The notes below the pieces were generated by a model. That model did no database searches. It was not told the origin of the DNA and was given only the letters and a program-made list of their open reading frames with translations. Below, piece after piece: positions 15,563-30,437 of a DNA stretch of 64,000 nt (position 1 is its first letter; each line of letters opens with the position of its first letter). The DNA is from Candidatus Binataceae bacterium (lineage in GTDB: Bacteria > Desulfobacterota > Binatia > Binatales > Binataceae). The stretch is from NCBI GenBank assembly GCA_015478645.1, contig JADMIL010000007.1:3356-67355 (forward strand), read 5' to 3'. Both the position numbers and the translations under genes were made by a program.

Positions 15563-16681
15563 TTACTTCTGGCTGAGCGCCCACGCGACGTCGGCCATCC
15601 GCGGCACGCGGCTGTCGTAGGTCGCGAACATCGGATCGTCGGCCTGCCCGCTCAGATAGCGCGCGTAGCTGCCCTCGGCGATGATCGCGAGCTTGAACAG
15701 CGAGAAGATTTCATAGAAGGCAAAGTCGCGCATCGTGCGGCCGGCCTTGCGTTCGTACAGATCGATCATCTCCTGGCGCGAGTAGTAGCCGCCGCCGGCT
15801 TCCATGCTCGAGACCACTTCGCGGCGGATCTCGTCGTCGCCCGGGTCGCTCCAGTAGGTGACCATCCAGCCGAGGTCGGCGAGCGGGTCGCCAATCGTCG
15901 ACATCTCCCAGTCGAACAGCGCGATGGGGCGCGGCTCGTCGCCCGCCGGATCCCACATCACGTTGTCGAGCTTGTAGTCGCCATGGACGATCGTCGCGGG
16001 CTGCGCTTGCGGCAGATGGGACTTGAGCCACGCCTGGATTTTGCCCATCACCGGCAGCGGGCGCGTGGCCGGAATCGTGCGCTCGAGCTGGTCGCTCCAG
16101 CGCCGCACCTGGCGCTCGATATAGCCGTCGGGACGGCCAAACCCCTCGAGGCCGGCGGCCCGCCATGCGACGCCTTGCAGCGTCACCAGCAGGTCCACCA
16201 TCCGCTCGCTGATCGCGCGCCGCTGCGCCGCCGTCTCGGCGAAGCTTTTTTCGCCCGACGGTATCAGGCCCGAACGGATCACCCGGCCGCGCATATACTC
16301 CATCAGCACGAACGGCGCGCCGATATAGGCCGGATCTTCGCAGCATGCATAGACGCGCGGCACCGGCACGGGCGTATTCTGCAGGGCCTTGAGCACGCGG
16401 TATTCGCGGACGACGTCGTGCGCGGTCGGCAGCAGCGGGCCGCGCGGCGGCCGGCGCAGGGCCCACGAATTGCCGTCGAAATGGATCAGGTGAACTTCAT
16501 TGGAATGACCGAACGAAATATTCTCGACGCGCATCTCGGCCGCGTCGCCCAGTCCGCCGTCGCGGATAAAGCGGCGCAGCCCGTGGATGTCGATGGTCGC
16601 CGAGGGGCCGGTTTTCTCGTTGCCTGTATCCACTATTGCCTGCCGTCCTGTGGCGCTTGCGCCGAATCCGGTCCCAATCAC
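15563..16681 (-). CDS. Phosphotransferase (APH/choline kinase-like) family protein
   Basis: The motifs FGHSNEV (GxSN) and HGDYKLDNVMW (HGD...N). GTG start. Confidence 0.75.
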   Translation of the reverse strand: MIGTGFGASATGRQAIVDTGNEKTGPSATIDIHGLRRFIRDGGLGDAAEMRVENISFGHSNEVHLIHFDGNSWALRRPPRGPLLPTAHDVVREYRVLKALQNTPVPVPRVYACCEDPAYIGAPFVLMEYMRGRVIRSGLIPSGEKSFAETAAQRRAISERMVDLLVTLQGVAWRAAGLEGFGRPDGYIERQVRRWSDQLERTIPATRPLPVMGKIQAWLKSHLPQAQPATIVHGDYKLDNVMWDPAGDEPRPIALFDWEMSTIGDPLADLGWMVTYWSDPGDDEIRREVVSSMEAGGGYYSRQEMIDLYERKAGRTMRDFAFYEIFSLFKLAIIAEGSYARYLSGQADDPMFATYDSRVPRMADVAWALSQK

Positions 16682-20326: not shown

Positions 20327-21649
20327 CTAAACCGCGGCCTCAGGGAACAGTCCTCGGCGGCCTTCGCGTGCCAGAAACCACAGATATATCTCCCCCACCA
20401 GATAGACCGAGCCGGTGACCAACACTACATCATGCGCGGCGCTCTCCGCCATAACTTGGCCGATCGCTTCGAGTGGATCGCGAGTAATCCGCACCGGCAC
20501 GCGGCCGGCGAAACTCGCCGCGAGAATTTCCGGATCGAGCGGCCGCTTGGGCGTCGCGCGGGTCACGGTGACGTCGCTGACGCGCGGCGCCAGCATCGCG
20601 GCCATCCGCGCCCATTGCTTGTCCTCGAGGCAGCCGAAGACCAGCCGCGGCTTGACCTGCGGCCCGAGTTCCACCGCGATGGTCTCGAGCAGCGCCTCGA
20701 TCGCCAGTTCGTTATGCGCGCAATCCAGGATGGTCAGCGGCTGGCGCGCGACGATATCGAAACGGCCCGGCCACACGGTGGTGCCGAGTCCGCGGCGGAT
20801 CGCCGCCTCGTCAATCGTCAACCCGCCGGCCCGCAGCGCGTCGATCGCCGCCATCGCGATCGCCGCATTCTCATGCTGGAACGGTCCCGCCAGGGCGAGG
20901 TCGACGTCGGCCAGATTGAGGCCCAGGCCGCGATAGTCGAGCCGATGGGCCGGGGCCTGCGAGCGATATGAAAATTCGCGATCGATCATGAAGGCCGGAC
21001 TCTGGCGCTGGCCCGCGATCGAGGAGAGCACGAGGCGCGCCGCGGGGTCGCGTGCGCCGATTACCACCGGCACGCCCTGCTTGATGATGCCGCCCTTTTC
21101 GCCGGCGATCGCGGCGATGGTATAGCCCAGCCGGTCCATGTGGTCGAAGCCGATGGGCGTAATCACACTGAGCAGCGGATGGACCACGTTGGTCGAATCC
21201 AGCCGGCCGCCGAGGCCGGTTTCGATCACCGCCAGGTCGACTTTGGCTTCGGCGAAGTACAGAAACATCAGGGCGACGGTGAATTCAAAGAAGGTCAGGC
21301 CGAGTCCGGCGCGCTCGTAGATCGCGCGCAGCCGCATGATGTACTCGAGCATCAGCGCCGCCGGCATCTCGGCGCCGTCGATCCGCGTGCGTTCGGTCAA
21401 ATGGACGAGATGCGGCTTGGTATAGAGGCCCGTGCGGTAACCCGCGGCGCGCAGCACCGCGTCGATCATCGCGGCCACCGAGCCTTTGCCCTTGGTGCCG
21501 GCGATATGGACGGCGCGCAGCCGCAAGTGCGGGTCGCCGATCAGCGCGAGCGCCTGGTCCATCCGCTCGAGCTTATAGATTTCGCCGCGCGCTTCGAGCG
21601 AATAGAGCCAGTCGAGAGTGGCGGAGAGATGCTCCATAACTGCGGGCAT
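20327..21649 (-). CDS. folC: Bifunctional folylpolyglutamate synthase / dihydrofolate synthase
   Basis: The P-loop HIAGTKGKGS in a Mur-ligase fold. Conserved accD-folC synteny. Confidence 0.9.
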   Translation of the reverse strand: MPAVMEHLSATLDWLYSLEARGEIYKLERMDQALALIGDPHLRLRAVHIAGTKGKGSVAAMIDAVLRAAGYRTGLYTKPHLVHLTERTRIDGAEMPAALMLEYIMRLRAIYERAGLGLTFFEFTVALMFLYFAEAKVDLAVIETGLGGRLDSTNVVHPLLSVITPIGFDHMDRLGYTIAAIAGEKGGIIKQGVPVVIGARDPAARLVLSSIAGQRQSPAFMIDREFSYRSQAPAHRLDYRGLGLNLADVDLALAGPFQHENAAIAMAAIDALRAGGLTIDEAAIRRGLGTTVWPGRFDIVARQPLTILDCAHNELAIEALLETIAVELGPQVKPRLVFGCLEDKQWARMAAMLAPRVSDVTVTRATPKRPLDPEILAASFAGRVPVRITRDPLEAIGQVMAESAAHDVVLVTGSVYLVGEIYLWFLAREGRRGLFPEAAV

Positions 21650-21725
21650 CTTAATCTCTGCGCGTTAGCCGAGAAAGGTCTGCTCGGGCACAAAACCGCG
21701 CCGCAAGCGGCCAGCGGGGCGCGCC

Positions 21726-22619
21726 TCAGCGTGACGTTCGTACCGGGCGGCGCCGCGGCGCTTTCGCTCCCCTGGCCGGGCGATCGTCGGGCGGCCGCAG
21801 GATGGCCAGCAGATGGCCCAGCGTATGGCGCATCTGCGGGCGCGGCACGATCGCGTCGAGCATCCCGTGCGCCATCAGGAACTCGGCGGTCTGGAAGCCG
21901 GCCGGCAACTGCTGATTGGTGGTCTGCTCGATCACCCGGCGGCCGGCAAAGCCGATCGCCGCGCCCGGCTCGGCCAGGTTGACGTCGCCCAGGCTCGCGA
22001 ACGACGCGGCGACCCCGCCGGTGGTTGGATCGCCGAGCACCGAGATATACGGGATGCGCGCGTCACGCAGCCGCGCGATGGCGCTCGAGACCTTGGCCAT
22101 CTGCATCAGCGAGAGCACGCCCTCTTGCATGCGCGCGCCGCCCGACGCGGCAAAGACAATCACCGGGATGCGCCGCGCCAGCGCATGGTCCATCAGGCGG
22201 GCGAGCTTTTCGCCGACCACCACGCCCATGCTGCCGCCCATAAAGCCGAAGTCCATCAGGGCGAGCGCGGTCTCGCGCTTTTCGATGCGCGCAGTCCCCG
22301 TTAGTACGGCGTCGAGCCGGCCCGACGCGCGCCGGGCCTGCGCCATGCGCTGCGGATAGGGACGGCTGTCGACGAATTCCAGCGGGTCGCCGATCGCGAG
22401 GTCGGCGAACAGCTCGCGCCATGAGCCGCGATCGACCGTGATCGCCAGGCGCTGTTCGACCGTCACCCGATGGTGATGGCCGCAGCGCGGGCAGACGTTG
22501 AGGTTGCGCTCGACCTCCTTGCGAAAGGCGATCTCGCGGCATCCGGGGCATTTCAGCCACATGTCGTCGGCGGCCGTAGCCGCCGCCGGCTGCGTAGCAG
22601 GTGCGCGATTCGAGGCCAT
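21726..22619 (-). CDS. accD: Acetyl-CoA carboxylase carboxyltransferase subunit beta
   Basis: An N-terminal zinc ribbon CPGC...CPRCGHH and the motif FMGGSMG. Confidence 0.9.
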   Translation of the reverse strand: MASNRAPATQPAAATAADDMWLKCPGCREIAFRKEVERNLNVCPRCGHHHRVTVEQRLAITVDRGSWRELFADLAIGDPLEFVDSRPYPQRMAQARRASGRLDAVLTGTARIEKRETALALMDFGFMGGSMGVVVGEKLARLMDHALARRIPVIVFAASGGARMQEGVLSLMQMAKVSSAIARLRDARIPYISVLGDPTTGGVAASFASLGDVNLAEPGAAIGFAGRRVIEQTTNQQLPAGFQTAEFLMAHGMLDAIVPRPQMRHTLGHLLAILRPPDDRPARGAKAPRRRPVRTSR

Positions 22620-22709
22620 CGGTAAATTAAACCGCCGCCGGCGCGATCGGTATCGCCGGGGTCGTTGGGGTTTGGTAAATCGCCTGGGTCATCCTGGGTG
22701 CCTGATCCA

Positions 22710-23564
22710 CTATGCCGAGACGGCCGCGCCGCCGCCATCGCGCGCGGTGCGCATCGCCGCTTTGAGCGCGGCGGCAAAATCCCCGACCACTTCGACCAGC
22801 CGATCGGACCCGGCGTGGGTTTCGATCAATTGCGATATCGCGCTGCCGACCACCACCGCGTCGGCGAAGGCGGCCACTTCGCGCGCCTGCGCGGGTGTCG
22901 AGATGCCGAAGCCGACGCCGATCGGCAGGTCGGTCACGGTCCTGAGTTCGCTCAGCCGCGCGGCGAGATCGGTCGCGATCCGGGCGCGCGCGCCGGTCAC
23001 TCCGGTCACCGAGACGTAGTAGAGAAAGCCGCTGGCCGAGCGCGCGATCACGCGGCTGCGCTCAAGCGGCGTGGTCGGCGCGAGCAGATAAATGATATCG
23101 AGGCCGGCGGCGCGGGCCGGACGGGCCAGTTCGCGCGCCTCCTCGGGCGGCAGGTCGACGACCAGCAGGCCGTCGAGGCCGGCGCGTGCGGCGTCGGCGC
23201 ACAGCCGGTCGCATCCGTAGCGCAGGATCGGGTTGAAGTAGCCGAACAGGATCAGCGGAACCTGCGTCGTGCGCCGGAGCTCGGTGACCATCGCGAGGAT
23301 CGCGGGCAGCGTCGCGCCGGCGGCGAGTCCGCGCGCGGCGGCACGCTGATTGGCGGGGCCGTCGGCCATCGGATCGGAAAACGGCACGCCCAGCTCGATC
23401 AGGTCGGCGCCGCGCGCCTCGAGTTCGAGCACCAGGCGGCGGGTGTGCTCAAGGCCGGGATCGCCGGCGACTATATATGGAATCAGCGCCGGTTCGCGGC
23501 GCGTGGCGAGCTCGCGGAATTTCTCCCCGATGCGGCCGCTATGGGTATTCGATCGATTAGTCAT
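22710..23564 (-). CDS. trpA: Tryptophan synthase alpha subunit
   Basis: A TrpA TIM-barrel with motifs (ELGVPFSDPMADGP; GFGIS). Confidence 0.9.
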   Translation of the reverse strand: MTNRSNTHSGRIGEKFRELATRREPALIPYIVAGDPGLEHTRRLVLELEARGADLIELGVPFSDPMADGPANQRAAARGLAAGATLPAILAMVTELRRTTQVPLILFGYFNPILRYGCDRLCADAARAGLDGLLVVDLPPEEARELARPARAAGLDIIYLLAPTTPLERSRVIARSASGFLYYVSVTGVTGARARIATDLAARLSELRTVTDLPIGVGFGISTPAQAREVAAFADAVVVGSAISQLIETHAGSDRLVEVVGDFAAALKAAMRTARDGGGAAVSA

Positions 23565-23625
23565 TAGGCTTAATAGTCATTTGCAGTTTATTAGTCATTA
23601 GAATAGTCAGAGCAACAAGCAATAC
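23565..23625 (-). repeat. AT-rich trpB-trpA intercistronic spacer carrying 3.5 copies of (A)ATGACTA(A/T)T
   Basis: The plus-strand motif 'tagtcat' occurs at 23558, 23574, 23592 and 23604. The minus-strand mini-ORF MTNKLQMTIKPND (23557-23598) overlaps the trpA ATG. Confidence 0.4.
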
Positions 23626-24819
23626 TCAGAGGGTGACGCCGAAGGCTTGCGCGACGGTCTGCATATCCTTGTCGCCGCGGCCCGACAGATTGACCACGAT
23701 TACCTGGTCGCGCGGCAGCGTCGGCGCGAGCTTCAGCGCATAGGCGACCGCGTGCGAGCTCTCGAGCGCCGGAATAATCCCTTCGCATTCCGAGAGCAGC
23801 CTCAGCGCCTCGAGCGCCTCGGCGTCGGTCACCGCGGCGTAGCTGGCGCGTCCGCTGTCCTTGAGCCACGCATGCTCGGGGCCGACGCCCGGGTAGTCGA
23901 GGCCGGCGGCGATCGAATGGGTCTCGCGGACCTGGCCCATCTCGTCCTGCAGCAGGTAAGTCCGATTGCCGTGCAGCACGCCGACCTGGCCGGCGGTCAG
24001 GGTCGCCGCGTGCATCGGTCCGCTGATCCCGAGGCCGGCCGCTTCGACGCCGACCAGGCGCACGGCCAAGTCCTTGATAAACGGATAGAAGATGCCGATG
24101 GCGTTGGAGCCGCCGTTGACGCAGGCGATGATCACATCGGGCAGGCGCCCTTCGTGCGCGACGATCTGGCGGCGCGTCTCGCGGCCGATGACGGCCTGGA
24201 AGTCGCGCACGATCATCGGGTACGGATGCGGTCCGGCGGCCGTGCCGATCAGGTAATAGGTGTCGCGGACGGTCGCGATCCAGTCGCGCAGGGCCTCGTT
24301 GAGGGCGTCCTTGAGGCTGCGGCTGCCGGCATCGACGGGCGTGACTTTGGCGCCGAGCAACTTCATGCGAAAGACGTTGAGCGACTGGCGCTCGACGTCG
24401 ACGCTGCCCATAAAGACTTCGCATTCGCGCTTGAACAGCGCCGCCATGGTGGCGGTCGCGACGCCGTGCTGGCCCGCGCCGGTCTCGGCCGTGATGCGTG
24501 GTTTGCCCATGCGCACGGCGAGCAGCGCCTGGCCGAGCGTGTTGTTCACCTTATGCGCACCGGTATGGCAGAGGTCCTCGCGCTTGAGATAAATCTTCGC
24601 CCCGGCGCATCGCGCGGTCAGGTTGGCGCATAAAAACAGCGGCGTCGGACGGCCGACGTATTCGGCCGCGTAGCGCTTGAGGTCGGCGCGAAAGCGCGGA
24701 TCGCGACGCGCCTCTTGGTAGGCTTTTTCCAGATCGAATAACGCGGGCATCAGGGTTTCGGCGACGTAGCGGCCGCCGAAATCGCCGAACCGTCCGCGGC
24801 TATCGGGCAGATTTTGCAT
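23626..24819 (-). CDS. trpB: Tryptophan synthase beta subunit
   Basis: The PLP lysine motif (HTGAHKVNN), the GGGSNA motif and a strong aaggag RBS. Confidence 0.95.
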
Positions 24820-25411
24820 TCGCGATGAAGCTCCTTAACTTCGCGGGATCCTTGACGCCCGGTGCGGCTTCGACGCCGCTGGCGACGTCCACCGCATACG
24901 GGCCGAGCGCGGCGGCGGCGCCGACGTTGGCCGGATCGAGCCCGCCTGAAAGAAACACCCGCGCCAGGTCGAAGCGGTCGAGACCGTCGAGCGGACGCGC
25001 CTGTCCGGTGCCGCCGAAGAGCCCCGGATGGAAGGTGTCGAGCAGCAGATAATCGGCCGCGCTCGCCGGCAGCGACGCATACGCGGTGTCGGCCTTGAGG
25101 CGCAGCGCGCGGATCACCGGCACCGGCCATCCGGCGAGGGCGTCTTCGTCCTCGTCGCCGTGAAACTGGAGCAGATCGAGATTGAGTTCGCGGCGGAACT
25201 CATCGATATGACCGCGTGCGGCGTTGACGAAGACCCCGGCGACGAGGCCGCGCGCGCCGATCGCCCGGCGAATCTCGCGCGCGCGCTCGAGCGTCAGACA
25301 GCGCGGACTCGGCGGATGGAAATTGAGGCCGACGATCTCGGCGCCCAGCGCCACCGCGAGTTCGGCGTCCGCCACCCGCGTCACGCCGCAGATTTTGATC
25401 CGTACGCTCAT
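24800..25411 (-). CDS. trpF: Phosphoribosylanthranilate isomerase
   Basis: The PRAI family start [11 protein letters not shown]. It overlaps the trpB start by 20 nt. Confidence 0.85.
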
Positions 25412-25452
25412 TTAATGTGCCTTAATGTGCCTACTCTTGCCGGCCCGCATGC

Positions 25453-26259
25453 TCACGCCGCGCCGGGGGCGGACGGACCGCCGAGCGCGTTGACCAGAAT
25501 CGTCAGGGCGTCGCGCGGAGCGCCGCCGCGCAGCAGGCTCTCGCCGATCAGAAACGCGCCCGCGCCGGCACGATGGAGCCGGCGGATATCGGCCGGCGTC
25601 TCGAGGCCGCTCTCGGACACGATCAGCGCGTCGTCGCGATAGCCGGCGAGCAGCGTCTCGGTAGTCGCGATAGCGGTCTTGAAGGTGTGCAGGTCGCGGT
25701 TGTTGATCCCGATTAGGGTCGCGCCGGCGGCGCAGGCGCGCTCGAGTTCGGCGGCGTCGTGGACCTCGATCAGCGCCGCCATCCGCAGCTCGCGGGCGAG
25801 TCCGGCCAGCGAGCGCATCTCGCCGTCTTTGAGCATCGCGGCGATCAGCAGGATCGCGTCGGCGCCGGCCGCGCGCGCTTCATAAAGTTGATAGGGATCG
25901 AAGATGAAGTCCTTGCGCAGCAACGGCAAATCGACCGCTGCGCGCACCGCGCGCAGGTCGTCGAGGGAGCCCTTGAAGTGGCTATCGGTGAGCACCGAAA
26001 TCGCCGCGGCACCGCCCGCCGCGTAATCGCGGGCAACCCGCGCCGGGTCGAGGCCGGGCAGAATATCGCCCTTGCTCGGCGAGGCGCGCTTGACCTCGGC
26101 GATAATCGCCGGAACCTCCGCCCGCAGCGCTGCGACGAAGGGCCGCGGTGCGGACGCGCGCGCGGCGGCCGCGGCAATTTCGCTTGGCGTCACGCGGCGC
26201 CGCTGGAGGCGCACTTCCTCGCGCTTGGCGGCGAATATCCGGTCGAGTATCGAGGGCAT
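25453..26259 (-). CDS. trpC: Indole-3-glycerol phosphate synthase
   Basis: IGPS motifs (EVKRASPSKG; LIGINNRDL). Confidence 0.9.
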   Translation of the reverse strand: MPSILDRIFAAKREEVRLQRRRVTPSEIAAAAARASAPRPFVAALRAEVPAIIAEVKRASPSKGDILPGLDPARVARDYAAGGAAAISVLTDSHFKGSLDDLRAVRAAVDLPLLRKDFIFDPYQLYEARAAGADAILLIAAMLKDGEMRSLAGLARELRMAALIEVHDAAELERACAAGATLIGINNRDLHTFKTAIATTETLLAGYRDDALIVSESGLETPADIRRLHRAGAGAFLIGESLLRGGAPRDALTILVNALGGPSAPGAA

Positions 26260-26274
26260 GGTTTAATCCCGCCT

Positions 26275-27309
26275 TCAGCGTGCCGCGGCGGCGCCTTCGT
26301 TGCTCACGCGGCAAATTGTTTCGAGCGTCGCGGCGGAGCGGCCGGCGATCAGGATCGCGCGCGCCAGTTTGACCCCGGCGGCGATCGTCGCCGCGCCGCC
26401 GCCGACGTAGATTGCGGCGCCGGCGTTAAGCGCGAGCACATCTTGCGCCGGGCCCGGGTCGCCGGCAAGGGTCCGCTTAAGAATCGCGGCGGCTTCGTCG
26501 GCGTCGGCGGCGAGGAACGTGGCCGGGCTGGCCGGGGCGACGCCGAGGCCCTCGGGCGTGATCTCGTATGCGCGCAATTCGCCGCCCGCCACTTCGACCA
26601 CCCGGGTCGGCGCGCCGAGCGAGATTTCGTCGAGTCCGTCGCCCCCATGGACGACCATCGCATGGTCGACGCCGAGCGCGGCGAGCGTCTCGGCCATCGG
26701 GCGCAGCAGGCGCGGGTCGGCGACGCCGAGCAACTGGCGGCGCGGATGCGCCGGGTTGGCCAGCGGCGCGATCAGATTGAAGACCGTGCGGATGCCGAGC
26801 GTGCGGCGCAGCACCGCCAGCCGCGCGAGCACCGGATGATAGCGGGGCGCGAAGATGAAGCAGAATTGCGCCGCCGCGAGGCAGTGCGCGAGCCCCGCCG
26901 GATCGAGCTCGAGCTTGACGCCGCAGCGTTCGAGCACGTCGGCCGCGCCGACCCGTCCGCTGACCGCGCGATTGCCATGCTTGGCGACCGGCACGCCGGC
27001 GGCCGCCGCGACGAGGGCGGCGGCGGTCGAGATATTGAACGTGCCGGCGCCGTCACCGCCGGTGCCCGCGGTATCGAGCACCTGGCCGCCGTGGAGCTCG
27101 AGCGGACGCGCCCGCCGGCGCATCGCGCGCGCGCCACCGGTCAGCTCGGCGGCCGACTCGCCCTTGATTTTGAGCGCGACCAGGAAGCCCGCGACGAGGA
27201 TGTCGGGGACCACGTCGTCGAGAATTTCGCCGACCACCTGCTCGGCTTCGGCGGCGCTGAGCGAGCGGCCGCGGAGCACCTCGCTGAAGGCTTCGCGCAG
27301 GTTGATCAC
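26275..27309 (-). CDS. trpD: Anthranilate phosphoribosyltransferase
   Basis: The motifs GTGGDG and KHGNRAVS. The true start is a GTG at 27309 that forms a GTGA overlap with the trpG stop. The 112-aa N-terminal extension in the ORF track is an out-of-frame read through trpG. Confidence 0.85.
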
Positions 27310-27881
27310 GCGGCCACTCCGGCAAGAAAGTTGCGCAGCAGGTCTTTGCCCGCGGGCGTGCCGATCGACTCCGGATGGAACTGCACGCCCTCGATGCGAT
27401 GTTCGCGATGGCGCAGTCCCATAATTTCGCCTTCGGCGGTGCGCGCGCTGATTTCGAGACATGCCGGGAGCGAGTCGGGCTCGACCAGCAGCGAATGATA
27501 GCGCATCGCGGCGAACGGATTGGCGAGTCCGCCGAAGATCGATTTGCCGTCGTGGATGATCGGCGAGGTCTTGCCGTGCATCAGGCGCGCGGCACGCACG
27601 ACCTTGCCGCCGAAGGCCTCGCCGATACATTGATGGCCCAGACACACACCCAGAATCGGCACCGCCCCGGCCATCGCGCGCAGCAGCGCGACCGAAACGC
27701 CGGCCGCGGCGGGCGTGCAGGGGCCGGGCGAGATGACGATCGCGTCGGGCTTGAGCGCGCGCGCGCCGGCCACGTCGAGAGCGTCATTGCGGCGGACGAT
27801 CGCGTCGACGCCGAGCTCGCCGATGTACTGCACCAGGTTGTAGGTAAACGAATCGTAATTGTCGATCATCAGGAGCTTCAT
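27306..27881 (-). CDS. trpG: Anthranilate synthase component II (glutamine amidotransferase, TrpG/PabA type)
   Basis: A class-I GATase with the GVCLGHQ catalytic Cys. The ggaggtaa RBS lies inside the trpE 3' end. Confidence 0.85.
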
Positions 27882-27885
27882 CGGC

Positions 27886-29394
27886 TTACCTCCGCGCCGC
27901 CGCTTCGAACTCGCGGGCGGCGCCGAGCGCGCGGATCATAGCGCGCGCCTTGTTGATCGACTCCTGGAACTCGGCGGCCGGATCGGAATCGGCGACGACG
28001 CCGCCGCCCGCCTGGATATAGACCCGATCGCCCTTGACCAGCAGCGTGCGCAGCGCGATCGCGGTGTCGGTGTTGCCGGTATAGCTGAAGTAGCCGACCG
28101 CGCCGGCGTAAACGCCGCGCCGCACGTTTTCCAGCTCGTCGATAATTTCCATCGCGCGGATTTTCGGCGCGCCCGAGACCGTGCCCTGCGGAAAGGTGGC
28201 GCGAAAGGCGTCGAACGCGTCGCATCCGTCGCGCAGCTCGCCGACCACGTTGGAGACGATATGCATCACGTGCGAATAGCGCTCGACGCCCATCAGCTCG
28301 GTCACCTTGACCGAACCGGTCCTGGCCACGCGGCCAACGTCGTTGCGGCCGAGATCGACCAGCATCACGTGCTCGGCGATCTCCTTGGGATCCGCCAGCA
28401 GCTCGCGCTCGAGCGCCTGATCCTCGGCCTCGGTGGCGCCGCGCGGACGGGTGCCGGCGATCGGGCGCAGCGTGATCTCGCGGCCCTCCGCCCGGACCAT
28501 CGTTTCGGGCGACGCGCCGACCAGCGTGAGATCGCCCAGGCGCACGTAAAACATGTACGGCGACGGGTTGATCGTGCGCAGGCTGCGATAGAGGTTGAAC
28601 GGATGGACGGTCAGCGGCGCCTCGAAGCGCTGCGACGGCACGACCTGGATAATGTCGCCGGCCGCGATGTATTCCTTGGCCGCATCGACCATCGCCAGGT
28701 AGCCCTCGCGGGTCTGGTTAGAGGTGATCTCGATCTCGCCGCGAAGGTCGGGCGCGGGCGGCTCGAGCCGCGGCGCGACTGCGGCCTCGGCCAGCCGCGC
28801 GATGGTCGCGTCGATTTTGGCCTGCGCGCTCAGATAGGCGGTATGGGTCGAAGCGAACTCTTCGAGCGGCACGCTCGCGATAATCTTGAGCGACTGGCGC
28901 ACGTTGTCGAAGACCAGCACCGTATCGGTGAACATCATGCAGAGGTCGGGCACGCCGAGATCGTCATGCGCCGTGGCGGGAATCCGCGGCTCGAAGCAGC
29001 GCACGATATCGTAGGCCAGAAAGCCCACCGCGCCGCCGAAAAAGCGCGGCATCTCGGGCAGCTCGGGCGCGCGCAGGCGCTGCACCTCATGGCGCAGCGC
29101 TTCAAACGAATTGTCGACGTGGCGGGCTTCGATCGCGCGTCCCGGCCTGATCAACTCCATCCGCTTGCCGCGTGCGCGCACCACCAGGGCCGGCTCGGTG
29201 CCAAGGAAGGTATAGCGTCCCCACTTCTCGCCGCCGCGCACGCTCTCGAGCAGAAATGAATAATCGCCGCGCGCAATCTTGAGAAAGGCCGAAACCGGCG
29301 TCTCGAGATCGGCGGCAATCTCGCGGCCCACCGGGATCAGGTTGAAGCCGCGGGCCGCCAGCGCGTCGAAGTCGTGTTCGCTAGGCGTAAGCAT
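27886..29394 (-). CDS. trpE: Anthranilate synthase component I
   Basis: The chorismate-binding-enzyme C-terminal domain ([13 protein letters not shown]; LIPVGRE N-terminus). An ATG at 29394 lies 9 nt after gggagg. The GTG at 29397 is the alternative. Confidence 0.9.
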
Positions 29395-29446
29395 CACAGT
29401 GAGCCTCCCGGCTCGGCGTCGTTAAGCGGGTGCGGCCGCGCGGCCC

Positions 29447-29486
29447 AAATAAAAAAGGGGCCGCTGGACGTAATGCCCGCGGCCCC
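29447..29486 (-). terminator. trp operon attenuator: Rho-independent terminator upstream of trpE
   Basis: On the minus strand, the stem GGGGCCGC / GCGGCCCC with a 14-nt loop (29457-29486) is followed by UUUUUUAUUU (29456-29447). Confidence 0.7.
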
Positions 29487-29509
29487 TGGAAAATCGGTTT
29501 CGTCGTGGA

Positions 29510-29596
29510 TTACAAAACCGGAGCGCAGGCCAACGCCACGTGGCGCCAACGCCAGTTCGCCCAACTCATCCGGTTTACGCAATCGCTCATCGCCAT
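29510..29596 (-). CDS. trpL: trp leader peptide (28 aa, MAMSDCVNRMSWANWRWRHVALACAPVL) with three Trp codons
   Basis: Read directly. The ATG at 29596 and the TAA at 29512-29510 bound the ORF. Trp codons at positions 12, 15 and 17 lie 23 nt upstream of the terminator stem. Confidence 0.65.
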   Translation of the reverse strand: MAMSDCVNRMSWANWRWRHVALACAPVL

Positions 29597-29624
29597 AGTA
29601 ATAAGCCAGCCGCGCCGCGCTTTG

Positions 29625-30437
29625 TCAATCGGCGGGGGTGGCCGCGGCGCTCGTGCCGCCGTAGGTGCCGTTGTATCTGGTGCGCAATTGCTGCTGCGCG
29701 GCAGCCGCCTCTTGCTGCGTCGCGTACGGACCGACCTCGACCTTGTACCAGGTCTGGCCCGAGAGCTGGGTCGATACGATATGCGGCGTGTAGCCGAGAT
29801 TCTGTAACCGCACGACCATGACTTCGGCGCCGTTGCGATCCATCACCGCCTGGATCTGGATATTGTACGGCCGGCGACGCACCGCGGGACTCGCCGAGGC
29901 GATCGCCGGCGGACTCGCACGATGGGTTGGCGCGGTGGGCGGCGAAGCTTCCGAATCGTCCGCCGAGGTATAGTCGGAGGACGATTCGGCGCTGCCGCGC
30001 GGCGCCGCGGCCGAAGGCGGAATAGTCATTTCGCCGGCGCGCGGCGGCGTTTCATCGGCAATCGCGCCGCCGGTCGGCGCGATTGCTGCGGCCGTGCGCG
30101 CGGGCGCCCTGGCATATCTCGGCTTCGCGATTTTGGCGATTGTGGAGGGCGTTTCCGGCGCCGCGCCGTCCTCGGCTACCGCCGGTGCGGACGGCGCCGC
30201 GGTAGCGGGGGCCGGCGTGCCGCTGACGGCGGCGGGCGGGGCCGACGTGGCCGGCGCAGCCGCGCTTTCCGGCGGCGTCTCGAGCGGATAGGCGGTCGCG
30301 ACCTGCGCCTGGCTCGACTGGCTCTCACGGCCGACGTCGTAGCCGGCCAGCAGGCCCAGCATGAAGACCGTGCCCGACAGCGCGGCGATCGCGAAGACGA
30401 TTGCGGCTATGCCGCCCGATCTGATTTCAAACCGCAT
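29625..30437 (-). CDS. SPOR domain-containing protein (membrane-anchored, with a Pro/Ala-rich linker)
   Basis: An N-terminal TM segment, a low-complexity AP-rich linker and a C-terminal SPOR fold (YNIQIQAV...GYTPHIV...TWYKVEVGPYATQQEA). Confidence 0.75.
   Translation of the reverse strand: MRFEIRSGGIAAIVFAIAALSGTVFMLGLLAGYDVGRESQSSQAQVATAYPLETPPESAAAPATSAPPAAVSGTPAPATAAPSAPAVAEDGAAPETPSTIAKIAKPRYARAPARTAAAIAPTGGAIADETPPRAGEMTIPPSAAAPRGSAESSSDYTSADDSEASPPTAPTHRASPPAIASASPAVRRRPYNIQIQAVMDRNGAEVMVVRLQNLGYTPHIVSTQLSGQTWYKVEVGPYATQQEAAAAQQQLRTRYNGTYGGTSAAATPAD

Follow-up and report, generated by a model that had tools for sequence, protein, structure and literature searches.

The tryptophan operon of a Candidatus Binataceae bacterium is preceded by what is very probably (about 85%) a ribosome-mediated, tryptophan-sensing attenuator of the Yanofsky type, controlling trpEGDCFBA and, if transcription runs through, accD and folC. 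The parts that define such an attenuator are found upstream of trpE: a cluster of Trp codons in a short ORF, an intrinsic terminator, an antiterminator that excludes it, and a 1:2 helix that sequesters the antiterminator strand. The first-pass annotation of this DNA had recognized here the textbook layout of ribosome-mediated attenuation; every element of that layout that can be checked in sequence is present, and is conserved in 41 relatives.

This would place the whole tryptophan pathway of an uncultured soil and peat lineage (phylum Binatota) under classical leader-peptide control, which is otherwise documented mainly in proteobacteria and Actinobacteria. A literature search returned no paper on tryptophan in Binatota. 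The control mechanism is already known and the example is new, so that the understanding of attenuation is unchanged. The Binataceae leader makes small additions to attenuator designs, namely an ORF that begins without a Shine-Dalgarno sequence and extends across segment 2, and a hairpin enclosed by the antiterminator. The analysis also yields an alignment of 41 sequences and a covariance model of the leader, which Rfam lacks; these should help to annotate such metagenome-assembled genomes (MAGs) better.

The trp operon and its leader

The locus lies on the minus strand of the window, by which we mean the whole 64-kb stretch of DNA analysed (positions 1-64000). The genes are as follows.

27886-29394, minus strand: trpE, anthranilate synthase component I, first gene under the proposed control (TIGR00564, 570 bits, above cut-off)
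20327-27881, minus strand: trpG, trpD, trpC, trpF, trpB, trpA, accD and folC (NCBIfam matches)
29404-29409, minus strand: GGGAGG, Shine-Dalgarno sequence of trpE (read from sequence)

Every gene, trpF included, has an NCBIfam match, and the curated cut-off was also reached by trpG (at subfamily level), trpD, trpC, trpB, trpA, accD and folC. Gene by gene, these matches agree with the complete trpEGDCFBA operon of the first-pass annotation. The nine genes trpE-G-D-C-F-B-A-accD-folC are co-directional and their ends are close or overlapping. The trpE ATG is at 29394, where the N-terminus MLTPSE lines up with relatives; a GTG at 29397 is an alternative start. Upstream on the same strand are a SPOR-domain gene (ending at 29625, with its TGA at 29627-29625) and argS. 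No tRNA genes were found in the window.

The co-directional accD and folC follow trpA (20327-23564, minus strand), and the linkage trpFBA-accD-folC also occurs in Sinorhizobium meliloti (PMC6614838). The reach of the attenuator may extend to these two genes, provided that there is no internal terminator.

The leader itself comprises the following elements.

29510-29596, minus strand: leader ORF of 28 codons and a stop codon, translation MAMSDCVNRMSWANWRWRHVALACAPVL (translated from the window)
29546-29563, minus strand: putative regulatory Trp codons 12, 15 and 17 (UGG at 29563-29561, 29554-29552 and 29548-29546), inside segment 1
29569-29576, minus strand: 5' ORF strand AAACCGGA, pairing with UCCGGUUU (29522-29515)
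29521-29537, minus strand: segment 2, pairing with segment 1 (via 29535-29528 and 29524-29522) or with segment 3
29495-29520, minus strand: hairpin H, CGGUUUUGU / loop AAUCCACG / ACGAAACCG (covariation, folds)
29457-29487, minus strand: intrinsic terminator hairpin, segments 3 and 4 (fold energy, conservation)
29447-29456, minus strand: U-tract UUUUUUAUUU (TTTTTTATTT), expected release site; a T-rich tract is also present in aligned relatives

The order originally described for the region, a 28-codon ORF with three Trp codons within six positions (minus strand, 29596-29510), a GC-rich stem-loop 23 nt behind it, a U-tract, the gggagg ribosome-binding site and the trpE ATG, is present in full. 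The distance of 23 nt (29509-29487) between the ORF stop and GGGGCCGC is exact. It is not an inert spacer, as it forms part of hairpin H together with the last codons of the ORF.

A leader family for comparison

The eight closest TrpE loci in a collection of species-representative genomes are 76-85% identical, and a homologous leader precedes trpE in all eight. These MAGs are labelled Candidatus Binataceae, delta proteobacterium or Proteobacteria. Metagenome contigs were further scanned with a 19-base degenerate pattern derived from the leader alone. About 40-45 of the 80 pattern matches listed were true leaders, and the other 35 or so were discarded as chance matches in coding DNA. One sequence that had passed a crude filter was removed by eye (L152) and another was dropped for apparent indel errors (L139). 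The conservation counts given below rest on the resulting alignment of 41 leaders. Searched with a covariance model of this family, the window contains a single match (106 bits).

The terminator and the region up to trpE

The terminator hairpin is GGGGCCGCGGGC/AUUAC/GUCCAGCGGCCCC (29486-29457). It folds at -25.7 to -26.3 kcal/mol (z = -5.1; none of 200 shuffles was as good), and across the 41 sequences 98% of its cells are paired, with compensatory changes at five pairs. Its 5' arm (29487-29475) constitutes segment 3 and contains the antiterminator partner CGCGGGC (29481-29475). On both strands of the 64 kb there are three sites that combine a strong hairpin with a T5 tract, of which that of the leader is the strongest. 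The other two are near 16245 (plus strand) and near 24636 (minus strand, inside trpB). So low a number suggests that this genome makes little use of canonical intrinsic terminators. A consensus terminator scan of the window missed the leader hairpin, probably owing to its bulged stem. The one minus-strand "terminator" that the scan did report (29537-29522) was rejected, being located in the ORF and explicable by chance.

Between the terminator and trpE, the RNA folds no better than shuffled sequence (z = +0.7) and is without conservation in relatives. This region (29385-29450, minus strand) includes the palindromic sequence GGCCGCGCGGCC and could form a small hairpin, GAGCC-GGGA-GGCUC, around the Shine-Dalgarno sequence of trpE.

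Alternative RNA structures

RNAalifold returned three elements from the alignment: the 1:2 helix, which contains the W-R-W codons; hairpin H, which contains the stop codon; and the terminator. The 28 pairs of this consensus are 97.8% paired (slid controls, 31-53%), as counted across the alignment; the window's own fold misregisters the inner terminator pairs in other sequences. Compensatory changes occur at seven of the 28 pairs, representing perhaps three or four independent events per pair because the sequences are related. The Trp codons lie in segment 1, which provides the 5' strand of the 1:2 helix (29561-29559 and 29553-29547), and the 1:2 helices are 94-98% paired across the alignment. 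In hairpin H, 99% of cells are paired and a UA-to-CG compensatory pair is found in nine sequences; the 5' arm ends with the first base of the stop codon, the second and third being loop bases.

The antiterminator, or 2:3 helix, is formed by GCCUGCG (29530-29524) and CGCGGGC. It is 97.2% paired in the 41 sequences (30-46% with the partner slid), a value that partly reflects conservation, since four of the seven segment-2 positions were fixed by the metagenome search pattern. No double-sided compensatory change occurs in the alignment, so that the helix is supported by conservation and energy. In the ribosome-stalled folds shown, the 2:3 pairing encloses H, which is thus nested in the antiterminator.

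A further helix, AAACCGGA:UCCGGUUU, links the 5' part of the ORF to its 3' part, extends the 1:2 structure and competes with H. It is present in the minimum-energy fold of the free leader. This helix was specified by hand and then counted on the alignment, where pairing holds in 79.8% of cells. Two of its pairs show compensatory changes (GC in 22 and AU in 8; GC in 18, CG in 5 and UA in 1), and none of 500 shuffles reached its covariation score. RNAalifold on the MAFFT alignment did not recover this long-range pairing.

Predicted switching and proposed mechanism

Fold prediction and comparison among relatives had been named in the first-pass annotation as checks on its reading. Nascent RNA up to segment 3 was folded with a ribosome masked so that its A site lay on the last or the first UGG of W-R-W, and the predictions switch as the attenuation model predicts. 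The 2:3 helix around H forms in 41 of 41 leaders with the last UGG masked and in 39 of 41 with the first. Only four form it when no ribosome is placed, and the remaining 37 ribosome-free nascent leaders do not. With the ribosome at the stop codon, the RNA 3' of it is almost unstructured (-1.7 to -5.4 kcal/mol in the three leaders shown). The comparison among relatives likewise bore the reading out, in that the leader ORF and its Trp codons are conserved.

The window's own leader has an antiterminator plus H of -24.9 kcal/mol and a 1:2 helix of -19.3 kcal/mol. Without a ribosome, the predicted optimum for its nascent RNA is the antiterminator (-41.5 kcal/mol), which an estimate by subtraction puts about 4 kcal/mol below the 1:2 conformer. 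Therefore, default termination in this particular leader would depend on the order of co-transcriptional folding.

We infer the transcription start, the translation of the leader ORF and the response to tryptophan as follows. Transcription would begin a few nucleotides 5' of the ATG at 29590, driven by the promoter-like TTGACA-N17 site at the overlapping 3' end of the upstream gene. The resulting mRNA would be near-leaderless, and its ORF would be read without the help of a Shine-Dalgarno sequence. With charged tRNA-Trp in good supply, the ribosome should reach the stop codon at 29512-29510 and cover segment 2 and the 5' arm of H. This would leave segment 3 available to segment 4, and the transcript would be released by RNA polymerase at the U-tract (29456-29447). 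When tRNA-Trp is scarce, the ribosome would stall on UGG-CGU-UGG, or on the UGG upstream of it, holding segment 1. Segment 2 (GCCUGCG) could then pair with the 5' arm of the terminator (CGCGGGC), H at the tip of the 2:3 helix bringing both strands together; the terminator would be blocked and transcription would run on into trpE. If no ribosome loads, the 5' half of the ORF is expected to pair with its 3' half, through the 1:2 helix and AAACCGGA:UCCGGUUU, leaving segment 3 free and allowing the terminator to form.

Promoter-like site and start of translation

Two elements upstream of the ORF bear on where the transcript would begin.

29623-29628, minus strand: TTGACA, -35-like hexamer overlapping the TGA stop of the SPOR-domain gene (conserved; putative promoter element)
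29598-29605, minus strand: AT-rich -10-like region, CTTATT (17-nt spacer) or TATTAC (19-nt spacer), a weak match of 3-4 of 6 in the window

TTGACA (TTGACT in two) is found in 40 of the 41 leaders at a fixed 70-75 nt 5' of UGG-CGN-UGG, and relatives have GATCAT, GATTAT or CATCAT as the -10-like hexamer with a 17-nt spacer. At the thresholds of a consensus scan, no sigma-70 promoter was detected in the window. From the -10-like hexamer of the TTGACA-N17 site to the conserved ATG the distance is 8-13 nt, and a Shine-Dalgarno-like motif precedes the ORF in only two of 41 leaders. The proximity of the ATG to the promoter-like site, together with the missing Shine-Dalgarno sequence, makes a near-leaderless mRNA probable, and a 5' UTR of 3-4 nt with near-leaderless translation of a 26-aa peptide would be the likely arrangement.

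The start of the ORF probably needs revision in this respect. The reading frame and Trp codons of the first-pass annotation stand, but the start codon of the relatives aligns with the second ATG (29590-29588), so the leader peptide is more probably the 26-aa MSDCVNRMSWANWRWRHVALACAPVL. The additional in-frame ATG 6 nt upstream is found only in the window (at 29596) and in two other leaders (L005 and L096). It is just 3 nt behind the -10-like hexamer, hence probably at or before the transcription start and unlikely to be used.

Relation to known attenuators

Leader-peptide trp attenuators have been described in gamma- and alpha-proteobacteria (PMC6614838), in Actinobacteria (PMC1262725) and in Deinococcus (PMC4007540). 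The Binataceae leader resembles E. coli trpL in the clustering of Trp codons within a short ORF and in its four competing segments, which pair as 1:2, 2:3 and 3:4 (PMC6614838; PMC4007540). It also shares with trpL the intrinsic terminator before trpE and the logic of stalling versus run-through. There is, however, no sequence or covariance-model similarity between the two. The Binataceae ORF has 26-28 codons against 14 in E. coli trpL, and three spaced Trp codons (WxxWRW) against two adjacent ones. Unlike that of E. coli, it runs through segment 2 into H and stops after segment 2. E. coli trpL has a 5' UTR with a Shine-Dalgarno sequence, for which the Binataceae leader leaves no room.

Leaderless or near-leaderless trp leader peptides have precedents in S. 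meliloti (PMC6614838) and Deinococcus deserti, where the trpEGD leader peptide starts 1 nt after the transcription start (PMC4007540). In S. meliloti, the leader-peptide attenuator (trpL/rnTrpL) also precedes trpE(G) and its transcript is leaderless (PMC6614838). The trp genes of that organism are distributed over three operons of which only trpE(G) is attenuated, in contrast to the seven genes behind one leader in Binataceae, and no sequence similarity to its trpL was detected. The Corynebacterium and Streptomyces leaders are similarly classical attenuators with double or triple UGG, GC-rich terminators and U-tracts (PMC1262725). Nevertheless, the actinobacterial and Deinococcus leaders come from phyla other than Binatota and are unrelated in leader sequence. 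A hairpin nested in the antiterminator, combined with long-range pairing of the 5' half of the ORF, is to our knowledge not found in any of them.

It is conceivable, although we would rate it at somewhat below an even chance, that the Binataceae leader represents an independently evolved structural class. It would be a five-element switch, with H clamped within the 2:3 helix in the ON state and dismantled by the long-range ORF pairing in the OFF state, translated in leaderless fashion from a 5' UTR of 3-4 nt, and the released RNA might act in trans as rnTrpL does.

Trans action also deserves consideration on its own, as an addition to a classical attenuator in which the released leader RNA of about 140 nt, the peptide or both would act on other genes. 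The rnTrpL RNA and peTrpL peptide of S. meliloti are precedents (PMC6614838; PMC7298713), and the terminated Binataceae RNA would be stable-looking and highly structured. Strong conservation is also seen in the 3' arm of H and the bases next to it, which would be single-stranded in the terminated conformer. The alternative structures acting in cis already account for this conservation, however, and the leader is present in a single copy in the window, with all family members located before trpE. We consider such an additional role unlikely.

Evidence bearing on translation and the proposed tryptophan sensing

Tryptophan could also be sensed without translation, by a TRAP-like protein, by uncharged tRNA in the manner of a T-box or by a metabolite, with the ORF being incidental. 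This deserves attention because conservation extends to the alternative helices, one of which contains the Trp codons. Constraints on RNA folding could thus account for some of the conservation by themselves, and the invariance of the Trp codons could be partly structural.

Several observations argue against it. Rfam matched no family at gathering score in the window and nothing relevant, T-boxes included, at E up to 10 in 29300-29700, so the leader is neither a Trp_leader (RF00513) member nor a T-box. TRAP sites consist of some 9-11 (G/U)AG triplets, 2-3 nt apart, that overlap the antiterminator. The leader, with two GAG and no UAG triplets in 29596-29487, is far from that number.

The conservation of the ORF also speaks against it. 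All 41 aligned leaders have an intact in-frame ORF of 24-28 aa. Its indels are of 3 or 6 nt only, and its stop codon, TAA at 29512-29510 in the window, occupies fixed alignment columns as UAA (24 leaders), UAG (14) or UGA (3). UGG-CGN-UGG is invariant in 41 of 41, variation being confined to the wobble base of Arg. The invariant in-frame Trp codons, the indels in multiples of three and the fixed stop position argue for translation of the ORF. Each leader has two to four Trp codons (exactly three in 31 of 41), and 37 have an additional Trp codon beyond W-R-W; some clades show WxxWRW, and in others a 3-nt insertion has produced WWRW. That the extra codon was gained by different routes points to selection for Trp codons as such. 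This, the indel lengths and the conserved start and stop speak against an incidental ORF. A translation-independent switch is therefore very improbable, and a ribosome-mediated attenuator remains the preferred reading.

Distribution and gene context

Linkage of the leader to trpE is constant. Wherever a metagenome leader has 250 nt or more of sequence behind it (29 contigs), trpE comes next. On the 5' side the neighbour varies, being the SPOR gene in only 19 of 47 cases. This pattern indicates that the leader element belongs to trpE and not to the upstream gene. In the window, only one of the 227 ATG-initiated ORFs of 15-60 aa in six frames has at least three Trp within six codons, and it is the leader ORF. 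That the hairpin and U-tract merely terminate the SPOR-domain gene (or an argS-SPOR unit), behind which a Trp-rich ORF arose by chance, would fit with the SPOR gene ending 28 nt before the ORF and with no other terminator lying between them, but is largely refuted by this synteny (the upstream gene differs in 28 of 47 cases), by the rarity of such Trp clusters and by the retention of frame, stop position and Trp codons in 41 of 41 leaders, and is scarcely credible.

The leader sequence family behind this attenuator looks specific to Binataceae. Outside the family, the covariance model scores 34 bits for a weak relative 5' of trpE in a further Binatia MAG (L033) and 22 bits for a marginal match in a Syntrophaceae MAG (L024). 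Two Candidatus Binatia MAGs (L012 and L069) have neither leader nor terminator before trpE, and hence the attenuator is not universal in class Binatia. In L012, the SPOR-domain gene runs right up to the trpE start.

The mechanism, as distinct from the sequence family, was held in the first-pass annotation to be lineage-restricted for trp operons. This did not hold up: in a crude scan, Trp-rich leader ORFs and terminators were found 5' of trpE in several unrelated lineages. Taken together with the published cases from Actinobacteria, the leader-peptide mechanism looks widespread beyond the textbook groups. ORFs with WW, WWW, WWWW or WPW, followed by strong terminators before trpE, were seen in L010, L014, L021, L024, L046, L033, L051 and L076, MAGs assigned to Syntrophales, unclassified Binatia, Spirochaetales, Glassbacteria and others.
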